Source: a virus
Taxonomy: Duplodnaviria; Heunggongvirae; Uroviricota; Caudoviricetes
Direction: 5' to 3' (one strand)
Virus record (IMG/VR): IMGVR_UViG_2713896779_000022
Length of the DNA: 35,191 bases
Within the stretch, counting starts at the first letter, position 1, and every line of letters starts with the position of its first letter. Shown here in pieces: positions 23,168 through 29,920 of this stretch. A program made the position numbers and the translations under genes. The notes below the pieces were generated by a model. That model worked only from the letters and a program-made list of their open reading frames with translations. It was not told where the DNA came from and did not search any database.

Positions 23168-23194
23168 CGCGCTTCGCTTGTCTGCTGCTTCGCC

Positions 23195-23217
23195 GGGGCA
23201 TAAAAAATTTATGCCCC
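23195..23217 (+). other. strong hairpin downstream of Q (possible terminator or cos-associated structure)
   Basis: GGGGCATAAA-aaa-TTTATGCCCC, 10-bp stem and 3-nt loop; no U-tract follows. Confidence 0.4.
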
Positions 23218-23590
23218 GACTCTCCAGCTCCTGTATCAGTCAGATAATTTCACGACGCCTTCCAGTTTATCGCCACCATCGACAGTCAGACTCTTACGCA
23301 ATCCCACCGCGTTGACTGCATGTTCTCGCCGTCTCAGTGCGATTTTGACGGCCTTACCTTTCACCCCATAAATCAAAAGCCCTCACGTCTTTTTCACGCT
23401 CAGCGTGAGAAATACAGCCATTCTGTTGTATCTCTGCGACATCGTTCAGGGAATGCTATTTACCCCCTGAAACGCGGGCTGTTCCCCCGTCACCTGCGCG
23501 CAGAAAAAACGCGTTTTTTTGTGCACGCACGGATCCTTGACGGATCCAGCCGCCATGCGGGCCGGAAGGGTAAAAAGTCGTTCAAAAAAA

Positions 23591-23631
23591 TTGTGCAAAT
23601 TTGTGCACTATCGTGCAGTGTGCATCGTGCT
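23591..23631. repeat. array of GTGCA iterons with ~10-bp periodicity
   Basis: TTGTGCA at 23591 and 23601, then GTGCA at 23613 and 23620 and GTGCT at 23627; ~60 bp upstream of the membrane-protein ORF, inside the Q-to-cargo non-coding region. Confidence 0.45.
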
Positions 23632-23696
23632 GTTTTCTGCGCAAAAAACGGATGGTAAATTTGTTCGTAGCAGGGAAATTTTAATGAGCGCAAGAC

Positions 23697-24227
23697 ATGA
23701 AGAAAGATTCATATCCTTATTTGATTTGCATGACTGTTTCAGTGCTAGGGATTATTTTCCTCTTTTACTGGTGGAGGGCAGATATCTACAGGATTACATA
23801 TCTTAATTCGCGTATATCCAATTATTACATCTTGTGTAGTATGGGTATATCCTTTTTCTTCTCCTTGTTTCTGGTGAAGAGGGGGGTAGTGAAGCAAAGT
23901 GGCTGGAAAGGACTGTCGGAATACCTGAAGGTTTATGCTGGCTCTTGCATTCTTACAGGGATATTCCTGATTATCCCTCTTATGATGGTGACTTATTTTT
24001 TACCAGGAGTAACATCATCATATGTTGCACCGTATGAGTATACATCCGGTAGTTCAAGAAGCTGTTCCGGAGCGTTTGTTGATGATCCCGATCTGCATAA
24101 AAATATTCTTATTTGCTATCCGTATGGTAACTATGAATATGACAATATTATCTATGTTGAAAAGAAAACTAATGCATTGGGCGTTGTTGTGACGTATGCA
24201 CAGACTGCACGAGACGATGCTGAATAA
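23697..24227 (+). CDS. AT-rich cargo gene: polytopic membrane protein of unknown function
   Basis: 176 aa with three predicted TM helices and a Tyr/Ser-rich C-terminal domain; markedly lower GC than the phage backbone. Confidence 0.6.
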   Translation: MKKDSYPYLICMTVSVLGIIFLFYWWRADIYRITYLNSRISNYYILCSMGISFFFSLFLVKRGVVKQSGWKGLSEYLKVYAGSCILTGIFLIIPLMMVTYFLPGVTSSYVAPYEYTSGSSRSCSGAFVDDPDLHKNILICYPYGNYEYDNIIYVEKKTNALGVVVTYAQTARDDAE

Positions 24228-24318
24228 GATACTACAGAGATAGTCCACTTTTTTTGTTTATTTGTCGGGATAAAAACAAATTACCCCGACTCACCATGTA
24301 TTAATCTTCCGCTTTAAG

Positions 24319-24702
24319 TTAGTCTTGTAGCTGCGCTGTCCTGCTATGCAGCAAAGCGGCGTACTTTAATGCGTCCTGTGCTTTCTGTAATTTAAGTGCA
24401 TAGTCAGTGGCGATTTTTTCCAGTTCAGCGATTCGGTTGTCTTTGGTTTCCAGCCAATCAAGTAGCGCCAATACTTCAGGATCCCCGACATCCAACACTG
24501 TTACGCGTGATTTTTCATAATGTTCGTCGGCAAGAGTTCGGCCAATTTTGAAATCTCCATCATCACCATAACCGGAGCAGGCATAAACAACCTGTGCTCC
24601 AGATATTCGCTGAATTGACATTTCCTCGCCGCAAATAGGGCATTTCGGTACTGGCACAGGTGAATAACGTTCACGTAATGCCTGATAGTTGATTTCGCTC
24701 AT
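24319..24702 (-). CDS. hypothetical protein with N-terminal Cys cluster (zinc-ribbon-like) and C-terminal coiled coil
   Basis: 127 aa; CPICGEE...YACSG then heptad-rich helix (IAELEKIATDYALKLQKAQDALKYAALL); downstream of parR on the same strand. Confidence 0.55.
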   Translation of the reverse strand: MSEINYQALRERYSPVPVPKCPICGEEMSIQRISGAQVVYACSGYGDDGDFKIGRTLADEHYEKSRVTVLDVGDPEVLALLDWLETKDNRIAELEKIATDYALKLQKAQDALKYAALLHSRTAQLQD

Positions 24703-24765
24703 TAAGTCGTTCTCTTTGTTTATGTTCTGAGGTGGAGAGCAGGGCGAACTCGCCCTGATGTTGTG

Positions 24766-25077
24766 TTATTCAGGAAATAACGCCCGGATATTTCCGGCCA
24801 TCTGACTGGTTATCTGTGCGGTTGATACTGGCTGTGATGCGGGGCGTTCTGTCCTGGTTTGTGTCAGGGATAACGCTTCATCGTCAGCCCATGCAGCCAG
24901 TCGGTAAGCCTCTGCCGGATTAATTTTCATAAGTGCCAGTCCGGCCAGAAAAGCCACGCGTTGACCACTTTTGCGGGCTTCTGGTGTAAGGCTGTCCAGC
25001 CAGGCGCATGCTTCGCCTTCGTTCTTGACGGCGGCGGGCTTCAGATAGAAACTTATCCGTCTGGTTGGTGTCGTCAT
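24766..25077 (-). CDS. parR: ParR/StbB-like centromere-binding adaptor
   Basis: Start at MTTPTRRISFYLKP with RBS AAGGAG 7 nt upstream, 4 nt after parM stop; resembles R1 ParR N-terminus (RRTIAFKL...LTAGLALY vs RRISFYL...FLAGLALM). Confidence 0.7.
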   Translation of the reverse strand: MTTPTRRISFYLKPAAVKNEGEACAWLDSLTPEARKSGQRVAFLAGLALMKINPAEAYRLAAWADDEALSLTQTRTERPASQPVSTAQITSQMAGNIRALFPE

Positions 25078-25081
25078 TGGT

Positions 25082-26041
25082 TTACTCCTTGTCCATTGCG
25101 TACAGCCCATTAACCAGAGCAAACTGTGGCACCCCGTCCGCGATGAAAGTCGCATTAACTCCGCAGGCTTCGCGGATAGCGGGTGCCACAATCTCCGCCC
25201 CGCCACCGACAACCATCACCCGCCCGTAACCCGAAAAGCCCGCCAGCGCGCGGATCACGCGTTGTTTCAGTGTTTCTTCCTTTTCACGAATAACCGCCAT
25301 CAGGCTGGCGTAATGCGCGTCATTGTGGATGTGCTGGCGCAACCAGGCTTCATCATGGCGATGTTCGATAATGGTATTGGCGATGTGGTGACTGGTACGC
25401 ATACCGTTAGTGGCCATCACCGACAGTACGGCATCGGCCATCAGGGAAACGCCTACGTGTGGATCGCAAAACACCTGGCTGATACCTGCCAGTTGCCCCT
25501 GAACCTTTGCCACATCCAGTGTGGTTCCGCCTAAATCCACAATCAGCAGGGATTCAAACGGACTCATGTCAGCCAGTGCTTTAAAGCCAGCCGGAATGGA
25601 TTCAGGCATAACCCGTACGTTACGGATAGTGAATGCTTCGCCGTTCTGGTACTCCACCGGGCGCATAACGTTCGATTTTTTGCGGCTGATGTTGGCCATA
25701 TCCGGCTGTGCGTTTGTGTCGAAATACTCGCTCAGTGGCAGGGTGACAACCACATCCACCTCCTGTGGCGTGATGCCTGATTTGACCAGTGCGTGATGAA
25801 TGGCAATGACATTCACATCGCTGTACTGGTATTGCGTGTCGGTCGTCTGGACAAAGCGATCGCTGACCGGATCAAAACCATAGCGCACGCCATCAAGCAT
25901 GTAGTTCGCGGGCTGCGTGCCACCGAACGGCGCAGACCATTCCGACTTGAAGCTGTTCGGGCTGATGGCGTTGCGGCGTTCGCCGTTCTCAGCCCATGCC
26001 AGCTTGATGTTGGTGGAGCCGTCGTCGATACAAATTTTCAT
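25082..26041 (-). CDS. parM: ParM/StbA actin-like plasmid segregation ATPase
   Basis: 319 aa; collinear resemblance to R1 ParM along the whole length (IDDGSTNIKL.W, ISPNSFK.EW, YSDVNV.A.HHAL, IRNV.VMPESIPAG, DLGGTTLD, GGGAE, LVNG.Y). Confidence 0.9.
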   Translation of the reverse strand: MKICIDDGSTNIKLAWAENGERRNAISPNSFKSEWSAPFGGTQPANYMLDGVRYGFDPVSDRFVQTTDTQYQYSDVNVIAIHHALVKSGITPQEVDVVVTLPLSEYFDTNAQPDMANISRKKSNVMRPVEYQNGEAFTIRNVRVMPESIPAGFKALADMSPFESLLIVDLGGTTLDVAKVQGQLAGISQVFCDPHVGVSLMADAVLSVMATNGMRTSHHIANTIIEHRHDEAWLRQHIHNDAHYASLMAVIREKEETLKQRVIRALAGFSGYGRVMVVGGGAEIVAPAIREACGVNATFIADGVPQFALVNGLYAMDKE

Positions 26042-26072
26042 GTCGCTTTTCCTTATGTTGATTAATTAATCG

Positions 26073-26181
26073 TTTACAGGATTTTTAAATCCCGCTTTTG
26101 CCTGTTTTGTGCGCGCCTCATATATCGCGGCACGTTTTTTGCTCATTTACGGGATTTGTGAATCCCGTTTCTGTCTGTTTT
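26073..26181. repeat. parC-like centromere/operator: two ~36-bp direct repeats each with a GGATTT(n2-4)AAATCC palindrome, flanking the parM promoter
   Basis: TTTACAGGATTTTTAAATCCCGCTTTTGCCTGTTTT (26073-26108) and TTTACGGGATTTGTGAATCCCGTTTCTGTCTGTTTT (26146-26181); the second copy overlaps the last 12 codons of gene A. Confidence 0.6.
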
Positions 26182-28959
26182 TTTGTTTCCACTGGTCAGG
26201 CTACCCCGCAGCAGGTCTGCTTTGCGGTGGGCGCGTTCAGTGGTTTCACTGATTCTCTGTGCGTGCTCTGCGTCACGGATGGCGCGCAGCATGTCAGAAA
26301 GCACGGTAACGGGGGTGGGCATGGTGTTCTGGTCCTGCTGAAGTGTGGATACCAGACGTGCGGCGGCTTCGGGGTCTGATGCCCCCAGCTGTTCCAGATA
26401 GCTGGCGACCGGGTTATGGCGGATCTCCGTGCTGCTTACGCCGTGATTACGGCTCAGGCGCTGCCAGAGCTGCGTGATTTGGCTGTCCGGGCGGGTATCC
26501 GGTTTGCGTACAATTTCAAATCCCTGCGGTGCAATGATGCTGCCGTCAACGTACAGGCTGCCGCCCCGTAACAGGTGCTGCATCTGCTGTTCACCAATAT
26601 GCAGGCCGAGAGATTCAGCAGACTCCCGCCATTCTTTAGCGAGTAACTCGTGGTTATCAGGCAAAGGCTGTGGCTGTTTGCGGCTCTGTGTCCAGTTCTG
26701 CATTTCATCGCTGCTGTTTTTTGCCTGTTTGTCACGAAGCGAACGCATCAGCGCCCGGCGTTCGTGCCGTTTCAGTGAATGCATCCATTCGTTCACTTCA
26801 ACGCCGTCAGGAAGCTGCGGCCACGGTGCTGGCCGTTCTTCCGGCTGTTCTGTCCCGTTGTTGTCCGTTTCCTGTACACGGGGACAGTTATTGCCACGAG
26901 TCCAAGGGGCGGCAGGGCCGCCCTGAAGGTCAAAACCATTTTCGTGGGCGTTGTCTTCCGGTTCTGGTTTACGTCTTACCAGCTTCCAGTTATCCGGATG
27001 CGTGCACACACGGGAGGATTCCCCGATGAGTGGTGACCAGATCCCGTAAATCTGTACGCTCTGTTCGCCGTAATCGTTCAGCTCATCTGCGAGGTCGTAG
27101 GCGGTGCGAATCAGGTAGTCCTTGCGTGGAACAAGCACGCCACCCTGTTTTTCAATGTAGGTGGCAAAACACCCGGCATCGGCGGCAGCGAGTACCGCAT
27201 CCATTGCATCATCTTTCAGCCGTTGCGGGCCTTCCGGATTGCGTGCCATCTGGCTGGCAAGGCGGCGCAGTTCACGCCACACCTGACGGGAGGGGATGCC
27301 AAAGAACTGGAACTGACGGACCCGGTGAAGGCGCGCCCAGCCGATGGCGCGCTCCACGCTCTCGGCCATTGATTTACCTGTTTCGTGGTCAACGCGTGGC
27401 TTGCCCGTTTTCGGGTCGATGCCATCCACGGCGCGGCTGTCCAGGTTCTTTCCGATGTAGGTGGCGATGTAGCTGGTTGGCGTGCCTTTTGAGCCGTCGA
27501 CGTACTCCGCCTTAAAACGCGGAGTTATGTCATTGCCCTGCTCGTGGCGGTCTTCCTGAATGGCAATATCGCAGACGTGGGACACGATGGTTACAATCTC
27601 GTCAGGATGAGCAAAAACCATCATGTGCCAGTGCACCGTGCCGTCATGATGAGGCTCCACCGTGCGGATGCCATACCAGCGCAGGCCGTCGCGGTTCAGT
27701 TTTTTGCGGACCGCCGCAAAAAACGTGTTAACCAGGTAATCGCTGGAGTCGTGCATAGTGGCCCCGTTCCATTTGGGATTCGGATGACCGTTCTCCGTTG
27801 TTGCGTGGTATTTTGACGGGCAGGTGACAGTCAGAAACACCGCTCTGTCGCCACGGGCTTCGGCCAGAAGTTCCAGCCCCTTCATGGTGGCCATCATTTC
27901 TGCCTTACGGTGAACCGGGTTACTTACTCCCGCGTAATACACTGTCTCGAGATCAATCGTGAACCCGTCTTCATTTTCCAGCATGAAACTTTTCAGGAAA
28001 TCGCGTGTTTTCTCGCGCTGTGCGCGAAACTCGCTTAACGCGTCCTGGCTCAGATAGGGTGATGTTTTTCTGGAAACCAGACAGGCGGCGCGGAGTTGTT
28101 CTTCTCTCCACTCGCAACGTAACAGCCACAGTTTGCGTTTCCACCATTCCGCACAGGTCAGGCGAAGGATTGCGCCCGGCAGCAGCTCCGTGTCCGGTTC
28201 GTTCCTCCGGTCTTTGTCTGTTGTCAGTGCGTCATAATGTGGAGGCATGGCGTGCAGGTGTAACGCCATGCGGGCCAGCATCTGATACGCCTTCAGCGTT
28301 ACATCCATGGTCAGTTCGCCATCAGTCGCGCCAAAGCCATCGCAGAGTTTTTCGAAGGTGCTGCTGAACATCGCCGCCGTCATGGTGGCCAGCGTCTGTA
28401 TCTGGTGTTTGTTGAGCTGCGGCAGGTAAAGCAAATCGTCCAGGCGTTCGCGTCCGGCAAGGGAGCGATAACCCGGTGTCAGCCAGCGGTGATCGGTGCG
28501 GTCCAGACGTTCGAATATTTTGCGCAGGGTTCCGCGCGCGTAGCGTTCAGCCTGCCAGCTCTTTTTGCCTTTCTGGCGATCGGCTTCCTGTTTTTTGCGC
28601 AGGAAAGAGAGGTGGCGGCTCAGAGGTTCACGCAGATAAACGGGAAGCACCTTCAGTGTGGCAAAAGCACGGGCCACCGGGTCTTGTTCTGTTGCCTGAC
28701 GCTTGCTGATGATGCTTTGTGCCAGCTTTTCACGCTGTCCGGCTTCCTCAAGGGATGCCATGAGTTTTTTACCCACGGTGGATTGTGCGAAAAAGGCTTC
28801 CTCCTTCGCTTCCTGTTCTTCCAGAGCCTTTTTGTCTGCCTCAAGGTAGTAACGGATGGCGCGTTGCAGGTCGGTTTCAGTTTCCTGCCTGTGCTCCGTA
28901 AATCTGGCCGGATCAATGGCTGGCCGTGGTTCATTCCAGCTCCATGCAAACTCATTCAT
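26143..28959 (-). CDS. A: replication initiation protein A (rolling-circle endonuclease)
   Basis: Start at MNEFAWSW (ATGA overlap with upstream ORF); contains HUH-type motif TVHWHMMVF and catalytic Tyr pair in YIATYIGK; ~938 aa, longer than P2 gpA. Confidence 0.9.
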   Translation of the reverse strand: MNEFAWSWNEPRPAIDPARFTEHRQETETDLQRAIRYYLEADKKALEEQEAKEEAFFAQSTVGKKLMASLEEAGQREKLAQSIISKRQATEQDPVARAFATLKVLPVYLREPLSRHLSFLRKKQEADRQKGKKSWQAERYARGTLRKIFERLDRTDHRWLTPGYRSLAGRERLDDLLYLPQLNKHQIQTLATMTAAMFSSTFEKLCDGFGATDGELTMDVTLKAYQMLARMALHLHAMPPHYDALTTDKDRRNEPDTELLPGAILRLTCAEWWKRKLWLLRCEWREEQLRAACLVSRKTSPYLSQDALSEFRAQREKTRDFLKSFMLENEDGFTIDLETVYYAGVSNPVHRKAEMMATMKGLELLAEARGDRAVFLTVTCPSKYHATTENGHPNPKWNGATMHDSSDYLVNTFFAAVRKKLNRDGLRWYGIRTVEPHHDGTVHWHMMVFAHPDEIVTIVSHVCDIAIQEDRHEQGNDITPRFKAEYVDGSKGTPTSYIATYIGKNLDSRAVDGIDPKTGKPRVDHETGKSMAESVERAIGWARLHRVRQFQFFGIPSRQVWRELRRLASQMARNPEGPQRLKDDAMDAVLAAADAGCFATYIEKQGGVLVPRKDYLIRTAYDLADELNDYGEQSVQIYGIWSPLIGESSRVCTHPDNWKLVRRKPEPEDNAHENGFDLQGGPAAPWTRGNNCPRVQETDNNGTEQPEERPAPWPQLPDGVEVNEWMHSLKRHERRALMRSLRDKQAKNSSDEMQNWTQSRKQPQPLPDNHELLAKEWRESAESLGLHIGEQQMQHLLRGGSLYVDGSIIAPQGFEIVRKPDTRPDSQITQLWQRLSRNHGVSSTEIRHNPVASYLEQLGASDPEAAARLVSTLQQDQNTMPTPVTVLSDMLRAIRDAEHAQRISETTERAHRKADLLRGSLTSGNKKTDRNGIHKSRK

Positions 28960-29648: not shown

Positions 29649-29823
29649 GGTGTGGCCTCTTTGCTCGGTGATAGAAATAGCTCACCATCCAGAGTTGAGA
29701 ATCTCGGGGTGGCGAGACGTACAGGGTTCTCAACACCGGAGAGCAAAGAATCCGGCCCGACCGAAGTCGGCCCCGTACGCCCCGCCATAATTCTGACGCG
29801 AAAAAGACGTGGCAATACAGTAC

Positions 29824-29848
29824 GCACAAAAAAACCGCTGGCGCGGTT
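29824..29848 (-). terminator. candidate intrinsic terminator inside the early region
   Basis: Minus strand: stem AACCGC / GCGGTT with 4-nt loop followed by TTTTTTT (plus-strand A-run 29828-29834). Confidence 0.4.
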
Positions 29849-29920
29849 ATGCGCTTTGCTCTGTATCGGGTTGAGAATCCCGGCACCCGTTTTATGAGGT
29901 GCAGCGGAAATGTAACCTGA

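Follow-up and report, generated by a model that had tools for sequence, protein, structure and literature searches.

The archetypal type II (actin-type) DNA partition system is ParMRC of plasmids R1 and NR1, also known as the parA or stbAB locus, in which centromere sites, parM and parR stand in that order. We examined a locus of the same order in a tailed phage, contained in the IMG/VR virus record IMGVR_UViG_2713896779_000022, a stretch of 35,191 nucleotides (the window) that represents a P2-like prophage of the P88 group in Escherichia coli. Judged from its sequence, the locus at 24766-26181 is an intact type II DNA-segregation cassette, as a sequence-only reading of this DNA had identified it, and whereas the R1 replicon is a low-copy plasmid, the host replicon here is an integrating phage. 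Below we make the case for a cassette that is part of the phage backbone and that may act on a transient extrachromosomal circle of phage DNA.

Two systems offer what we regard as precedents for actin-type partition on the circular form of an integrative element (PMC4489591, PMC4446434). SrpMRC of the SXT/R391 integrative and conjugative elements (ICEs) is a type II system that reduces loss of the excised, rolling-circle-replicating, plasmid-like form (Carraro et al. 2015, PMC4489591), and the same family pairs it with a toxin-antitoxin system (PMC4489591). Like SrpMRC, the phage cassette is a type II system on an element that is normally integrated, but the carrier of SrpMRC is an ICE rather than a phage, and SrpM and SrpR are distant from R1 ParM and ParR, of which the phage proteins are close relatives. 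In prophage CGP3 of Corynebacterium glutamicum, AlpA and AlpC combine an actin-like ATPase with an adaptor whose binding sites precede the operon that encodes it; the pair is induced soon after the prophage has excised, and the circular phage DNA depends on it to replicate efficiently (Donovan et al. 2015, PMC4446434). AlpAC differs from the cassette described here in belonging to another actin-like family and in its Gram-positive host. Among P2-like phages, Burkholderia KS14 is demonstrably extrachromosomal and encodes ParA (type I) and RepB, without gpA (Lynch et al. 2010, PMC3091744). KS14 and the P88-like phages both join P2-type virion genes to a partition function, but the P88-like phages, unlike KS14, keep gpA and an integrase and occur integrated. 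The P1-like phage D6, a bona fide phage-plasmid of 91 kb unrelated to the Peduoviridae, encodes a StbA-type protein with 47.5% identity to the ParM studied here; apart from it and the P88-like records, no phage record has a homologue of ParM.

The cassette itself and the idea of plasmid maintenance are already known, from annotation and in print. The NCBI Prokaryotic Genome Annotation Pipeline (PGAP) and RefSeq name both genes correctly, and parM and parR annotated in P88 and other Xuanwuvirus genomes are the same locus, lying between gpA and variable cargo with ParM 98-99% identical; the copy studied here differs from this P88-type locus only by an A7 for an A6 run and, within the proximal palindrome, by a T in place of a C, and nothing essential is altered. 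Rousset et al. 2022 (PMC9122126) reported that roughly one in four P2-like phages of E. coli has a putative plasmid partitioning system. Pfeifer et al. 2021 (PMC7969092) pointed to P88 as a possible phage-plasmid with possibly both episomal and integrative states, and Magaziner et al. 2019 counted the phiSM gene among 'fitness' cargo genes. What is added here is the status of the cassette as a core module, a two-site layout that recurs across genera, and a quantitative case against a plasmid lifestyle. The features of the cassette and of the replication gene next to it are as follows.

24766-25077, minus strand: parR, predicted 103-residue adaptor and centromere-binding protein (PF10784, PHROG 2515)
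25082-26041, minus strand: parM, 319-residue actin-fold ATPase (Pfam, R1 ParM structure, PHROG 691)
26042-26069, minus strand: parM leader, with a ATTAATCAA box at 26058-26066 and a Shine-Dalgarno sequence, AAGGA, at 26050-26054
26070-26108, minus strand: proximal repeat of 39 nt, palindrome at 26076-26094, putative ParR site
26109-26142, minus strand: spacer of 34 nt between the repeats, holding the gpA stop codon usual in relatives (26118-26120)
26143-26181, minus strand: distal repeat of 39 nt, palindrome at 26149-26168 with perfect 8-nt arms, putative ParR site
26143-28959, minus strand: gpA rolling-circle replication initiator (Phage_GPA), directly upstream of parM and co-oriented with it

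The identification of ParM is secure along the whole protein. The sequence-only reading had recognised a homologue of R1 ParM over its full length, a view that hinged on a significant match for the 319-residue product, and this is borne out by the Pfam domains StbA_N (residues 1-157, E=1.6e-81) and ParM C-terminal (residues 159-316, E=1.3e-68), by an alignment with the R1 ParM structure 1mwk over residues 2-316 (E=2.5e-92) and by membership of PHROG 691, 'partition protein'; matches in an NCBIfam search were sub-threshold only. As in ParM/StbA ATPases of type II systems, the nucleotide-binding motifs are intact: D6-D7-G8-S9-T10-K13, E147, D169-G171-G172-T173-T174-D176 and G279-G281, which together cover the phosphate-binding and adenosine motifs, are invariant in the phage clade. 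These motifs are shared with ParMs of PLSDB plasmids, to which the phage protein is approximately 46-52% identical over its full length (approximately 46% for the R1-type IncFII protein); the closest plasmid ParM, prophage-bearing records aside, reaches 52%.

Directly downstream, ParR supplies the adaptor expected of a type II system. It matches PF10784 (Plasmid_stab_B, the StbB/ParR family) with E=1.9e-25, falls like ParM in a PHROGs 'partition protein' family, and shares with R1 ParR the PF10784 family, an N-terminus of ribbon-helix-helix (RHH) type and a C-terminal tip of the form N-x-x-x-L/F; the RHH fold and ParM binding are thus predicted from sequence likeness, and a PDB sequence search with ParR returned no match. 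The protein comprises an N-terminal RRISFYLKP strand, a variable linker and a C-terminal NIRALFPE tip. A scan of IMG/VR with an alignment of the clade gave 80 loci, all 98-99% identical, and no divergent relatives; in this sample the ParR N-terminus, MTTPTRRISFYLKP, is almost invariant and the tip, ..NI(R/Q)xxFPE, is conserved, and the linker is hypervariable, with 42 distinct proteins in 71 loci. The alleles (IMG/VR loci L018-L097) comprise a 103-residue type and at least three 104-residue types that diverge from residue ~18, and ParM remains 98-99% identical across loci whose ParR alleles differ. N96 and F101 are invariant in phage and plasmid ParRs alike, and the R1-type protein ends in ..KKNAMKLIN. 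In R1, the C-terminal tip is the part of ParR that binds ParM. A start at the TTG at 25212, offered by the open reading frame list, was rejected in favour of the ATG at 25077, which lies 4 nt beyond the parM stop codon and 9 nt downstream of a GGAG. The parR-like gene and the strong ribosome-binding site noted from the sequence are therefore upheld by family match, gap and GGAG motif, and the translational coupling claimed with them is plausible.

Upstream of parM lie, as had been described, two direct repeats with a palindrome in each. They measure 39 nt, slightly more than the ~36 bp first given for them, are 82% identical, start 73 nt apart and each contain GGGAT..ATCC. Both palindromes are unique in the 35-kb window, and none of 100 shuffles matched their number. 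Their centres lie 44.5 nt (proximal) and 117.5 nt (distal) upstream of the parM ATG, and the 73 bp between them correspond to seven helical turns. In this copy a C-to-T change makes the proximal palindrome deviate by one base from the lineage consensus GGGW-N8-WCCC (..AATCCT vs ..AATCCC). Precisely two copies of the consensus precede parM in the E. coli (typical allele), Plesiomonas and Hafnia lineages, at 117.5/44.5, 123.5/51.5 and 120.5/47.5 nt from the ATG and with spacings of 73, 72 and 73 bp, respectively, and 13 kb of flanking DNA contain no more than one further copy. This layout is common to phages whose ParRs are just 37-42% identical but keep the RRISFYL strand. The Serratia and Enterobacter phages differ, with inverted arms of 14-20 nt placed 26-28 nt apart. 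In all three lineages with the two-site layout the distal site lies inside the preceding coding sequence, and within E. coli its nucleotides are conserved despite the two or three reading frames laid over them, which argues for constraint at the level of DNA.

The candidate parC thus rests on two repeats and a layout shared across genera, and it departs from R1-type parC, in which ten A/C-rich iterons flank a strong TTGACA promoter; the phage has two 39-nt repeats with palindromes of 18-20 nt and no recognisable promoter. The plasmid-type loci compared (R1-type and two others) lack GGGW-N8-WCCC in front of parM. The sequence-only reading placed a presumptive promoter between the repeats, which found no support: a scan of 24200-26500 gave no sigma-70 promoter. 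The distal repeat, with most of the spacer, lies within the gpA reading frame. The best candidate by eye, TTTAAA-N17-ATTAAT over the proximal palindrome, is not claimed as a promoter, as its -35 hexamer reads TTTCAG in the majority allele. The ATTAATCAA box, which in E. coli, Plesiomonas and Hafnia loci alike follows the proximal site and precedes the Shine-Dalgarno sequence, might serve as a -10 element. A terminator scan found no minus-strand terminator-like site between gpA and parM; those of the scanned region lie within parM and parR only. The position of parMR right after gpA, with neither a terminator-like site nor a recognisable promoter in between, suggests that the cassette is probably expressed as part of the early replication operon.

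This site region overlaps the 3' end of gpA, which varies slightly. The stop codon, at 26118-26120 in relatives, is at 26143-26145 here, the result of an A7 homopolymer at 26178-26184 that carries one extra A relative to P88 and to a circular PLSDB record discussed below (NZ_CP148288.1, our locus L004); the insertion lies 13 codons from the end of gpA, exchanges the last ~13-20 residues and leaves the overlapping palindrome intact. Among 86 loci examined, 75 were scorable relatives, with A6 in 70, A7 in three and A5 in two. PGAP labels the gene 'frameshifted', but we dropped the view that replication is dead, as the change is a single homopolymer A that is also present in the isolated phage Chuche. 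The Pfam match of gpA to Phage_GPA (1.4e-127) covers residues 194-518 only; the protein has 940-947 residues in the lineage, including a C-terminal extension of ~430 residues without a Pfam match.

Conservation speaks against viewing the cassette as sporadic cargo. Within the phage collection, homologues of ParM are confined to 14 P88-like records and D6, and the 14 records are exactly those that carry this type of gpA, all of which have parMR. As a search of related P2-like genomes confirmed, the same arrangement is found in P2-like prophages of Plesiomonas, Hafnia, Serratia and Enterobacter, where ParM is 54-63% identical and the order gpA, parM, parR, variable genes, portal is kept across five genera. 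In a neighbour-joining tree of 106 leaves, which carries no bootstrap values, phage-context ParMs form one clade of 16 leaves that leaves out the two other ParMs checked, one in a plasmid-like and one in a conjugative-element context, both at 49-50% identity. The GC content of parM (55%) and its GC content at third codon positions (GC3, 65%) equal phage backbone values, against 44% in the cargo. Backbone-like composition, synteny and co-occurrence with gpA argue for a backbone status of the cassette, and on this sequence evidence we regard it as a conserved module of the P88-like and related P2-like temperate phages.

The same comparisons bear on the possibility that parMR is a neutral hitch-hiker, or the decaying relic of an ancestral plasmid-phage fusion, without current function. 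Pseudogene flags and the degenerate proximal site in this prophage would fit such a relic, as would the broken parM in phage record 503458 (a tblastn match in four pieces) and in one of 79 IMG/VR loci. Against this, intactness is near-universal, with parM full length in 78 of those 79 loci and parR intact in all 71 readable copies; synteny is maintained across genera at 54-63% ParM identity; and the ratio of nonsynonymous to synonymous substitution rates (dN/dS), taken pairwise against eight relatives, is far below 1 for both parM (0.06-0.16) and parR (0.12-0.34), indicating that both genes are under purifying selection. We therefore consider a relic very improbable.

The element that carries the cassette is, from its genomic context, a conventional chromosomally integrated prophage, neither plasmid-borne nor visibly episomal. 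Window positions 24200-26400 match chromosomes of E. coli O121:H19 and O103 at 100%, the host being a Shiga-toxigenic-type E. coli, and in strain RM8352 the prophage sits between the glyW-cysT-leuZ tRNA cluster (tRNA-Leu) and yecA, with a tyrosine integrase at its end. Its parMR and gpA are 94-97.5% and 93-97% identical, respectively, at the nucleotide level to Xuanwuvirus records, and the gene order is of the P88/P884B11 type, so that identity and synteny place it in the genus Xuanwuvirus (Peduoviridae). The locus has matches in 1414 of 5426 complete E. coli genomes, and a phage-specific query located 2040 chromosomal places against 2 on plasmids, with up to four places per genome, nearly all chromosomal. 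A wider query had given 43 'plasmid' places, which we dropped as extrachromosomal copies since the phage-specific query leaves 2; most of the 43 are probably the ead/Ea22 part alone, to judge from a parallel PLSDB search in which sub-90% matches span just that part, on plasmids of ~100 kb.

These counts do not support the view that the insertion of a plasmid-type cassette implies a plasmid lifestyle, as the sequence-only reading had proposed. One form of this view is that the phage is a facultative phage-plasmid, able to persist as a low-copy plasmid in lysogeny when, for example, the bacterial attachment site attB is absent, with parMRC as its partition system. Conjectures to this effect are in print (PMC9122126, PMC7969092), the P2-like KS14 is a proven plasmid prophage (PMC3091744), a Hok/Gef-family gene is also present in the lineage, and one circular PLSDB record, NZ_CP148288.1 (strain Z1323PEC0009; 34,461 bp), is labelled a plasmid and comprises an entire P88-like genome including the integrase. 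That record could be an excised, induced form: a 2.4-kb query from its portal-cargo-parR segment has a 99.9% identical copy in the chromosome of a sister strain. The distribution of 2040 chromosomal to 2 plasmid places, the tyrosine integrase and the tRNA-adjacent insertion all speak against plasmid lysogeny. The up to four copies per genome, which share the centromere-like sites where upstream sequence was compared, would be mutually incompatible as plasmids. Moreover, the sole replication initiator annotated is rolling-circle gpA of the lytic early operon, whereas KS14 has RepB and ParA but no gpA; no plasmid-type Rep appears in the PGAP annotation of the early region, which is not an exhaustive hidden Markov model screen of every open reading frame. 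Extrachromosomal maintenance in lysogens thus finds little in these genomes to recommend it, and we consider a facultative phage-plasmid unlikely. In a separate case, NZ_CP110658.1, a Salmonella plasmid of 272 kb, carries a P88-like ParM (99.1%) plus a second ParM locus.

Taken together, identity, integrity, conservation, synteny and site architecture are compatible with a working segrosome that acts on a transient extrachromosomal phage circle, a reading to which we assign a probability of about 0.5. In such a segrosome, ParR dimers would bind both GGGAT-N-ATCCC palindromes through the N-terminal RRISFYL strand, the C-terminal tip (..NIRALFPE) would capture the ends of ParM-ATP filaments, and filament growth between two ParR-bound copies would push these apart. 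Since nearly all genomes carry the phage in integrated form, the likely substrate is a transient circle, present either between infection and integration or, once the prophage has excised, while gpA drives replication. Spreading or positioning the phage copies would be expected to keep them from being lost at cell division, or to let them replicate and be packaged efficiently. DNA binding, filament capture, expression timing and the advantage to the phage are inferred.

Several points weigh against a segrosome of this kind. P2-type replication normally ends in lysis, which makes it hard to see what the phage would gain from partition. Two sites, against ten R1-type iterons, may be too few for filament capture to be assured, and within E. 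coli the repeats are conserved no more than the flanking DNA, so that evidence for their function rests on the cross-genus comparison. This particular copy may moreover be idle, considering its off-consensus proximal site, the altered gpA tail and a frameshift in a gpU-like tail gene, and the literature found for this phage group comprises lists or conjectures, with no functional study among them. PGAP flags six pseudogenes in the O121 prophage, and the gpU-like gene, which it calls frameshifted, is split over two frames; together these flags raise the possibility that the prophage is defective and forms no infectious particles.

8297-8771, plus strand: gpU-like tail gene, split into 8297-8593 and 8553-8771, with the frameshift at about 8553-8593

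The parM and parR genes of this O121 copy are nevertheless intact. The sequence-only reading had named a conventional prophage with a non-functional cassette as the outcome that would speak against it; the prophage is indeed conventional, but the cassette is intact and under purifying selection. A broader form of the same reading is that a sublineage of P2-like phages in Escherichia/Citrobacter, Plesiomonas, Hafnia, Serratia and Enterobacter has long kept ParMR as a core gene pair, with a minimal centromere in three of the four lineages, made of two palindromes seven helical turns apart of which the distal one lies in the preceding gene, a design absent from the R1-type and two other plasmid-type loci compared; that the system acts on the short-lived rolling-circle phage circle during the establishment of lysogeny or the lytic cycle and not on a plasmid prophage; and that it would constitute a phage-specific branch of type II systems with a site architecture and a biological role of its own. 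We hold this larger proposal somewhat more tentatively, a little short of even odds.

The neighbourhood downstream of parR raises a further alternative. The cassette does lie between gpA and the cos/portal region, as had been stated, and its assignment to the site where P2 carries old and tin is correct as to the gpA-cos interval; the variable hotspot itself, however, starts only after parR.

23168-24765: variable AT-rich cargo and cos interval, downstream of parR and outside the cassette, where relatives diverge
23697-24227, plus strand: predicted membrane protein of 176 residues (PHROG 1416)
24319-24702, minus strand: ead/Ea22-like gene (PF13935, 3.9e-29), truncated according to PGAP

The genes in this interval are AT-rich (39-46% GC; 44% for the interval) and vary between relatives. 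Bordering as it does on a known P2 anti-phage hotspot, the cassette could have been co-opted, either with ParR serving chiefly for transcriptional regulation where gpA meets parM, or with a role in exclusion of, or incompatibility with, plasmids or rival phages. Also in favour of co-option are the position of the putative ParR sites, which coincide in part with the gpA end and the parM leader, and the highly polymorphic linker/helix region of ParR (the 42 proteins described above). Yet PADLOC models gave no match for ParM, ParR, the ead-like protein or the 176-residue protein, so that the cassette resembles no anti-phage defence system represented there. ParM, strongly constrained and with all its ATPase motifs, would be needless for a pure regulator; the sites are unlike R1-type iterons and their motif does not occur upstream of plasmid-type parM, which makes cross-incompatibility unlikely; and the composition is that of the backbone. 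We judge co-option improbable, slightly more so than the phage-plasmid lifestyle.

Further features of the window lie outside the cassette. At the attachment-site-proximal end of the prophage, a Hok/Gef-family toxin gene adjoins ogr, and the segment is also present in P88, P884B11, Chuche, phiSM and PhiR44_2.

1309-1449, minus strand: 46-residue Hok/Gef-family toxin (Pfam HOK_GEF, 3.7e-07)
1640-1900, minus strand: ogr

An Rfam search found no Sok-like RNA above threshold at this gene, and hok homologues are common in lambdoid phages too. Plasmid R1 has both parMRC and hok/sok. The joint presence of a Hok/Gef gene and parMR in this phage lineage also parallels the pairing of toxin-antitoxin and partition systems in R391. 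In an intergenic stretch of the early region, two RNAs with scores above the Rfam gathering score lie side by side.

29705-29792, minus strand: C4 antisense RNA (78.5 bits)
29828-29902, minus strand: isrK Hfq-binding small RNA (62.8 bits)

The first ~991 nt of the window are part of an IS3-family element.

19-135: ALIL frameshift pseudoknot
61-951: transposase with an rve domain

Positions 1-3300 match at 100% only the chromosome of E. coli 2014C-3655, other O121 genomes matching from 992 onwards, and the window is ~132-133 nt shorter than otherwise identical RefSeq O121 chromosomes, the difference lying somewhere within ~8.8-24.2 kb.

Roughly a quarter of complete E. coli genomes thus contain a prophage with this cassette, and a segregation machine is puzzling equipment for a phage that integrates. 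If the segrosome does segregate transient phage circles, the blurring of integrated and plasmid states known from SXT/R391 ICEs would extend to tailed phages, and the cassette would offer a very small, two-site centromere for work on the mechanism by which ParR captures ParM.

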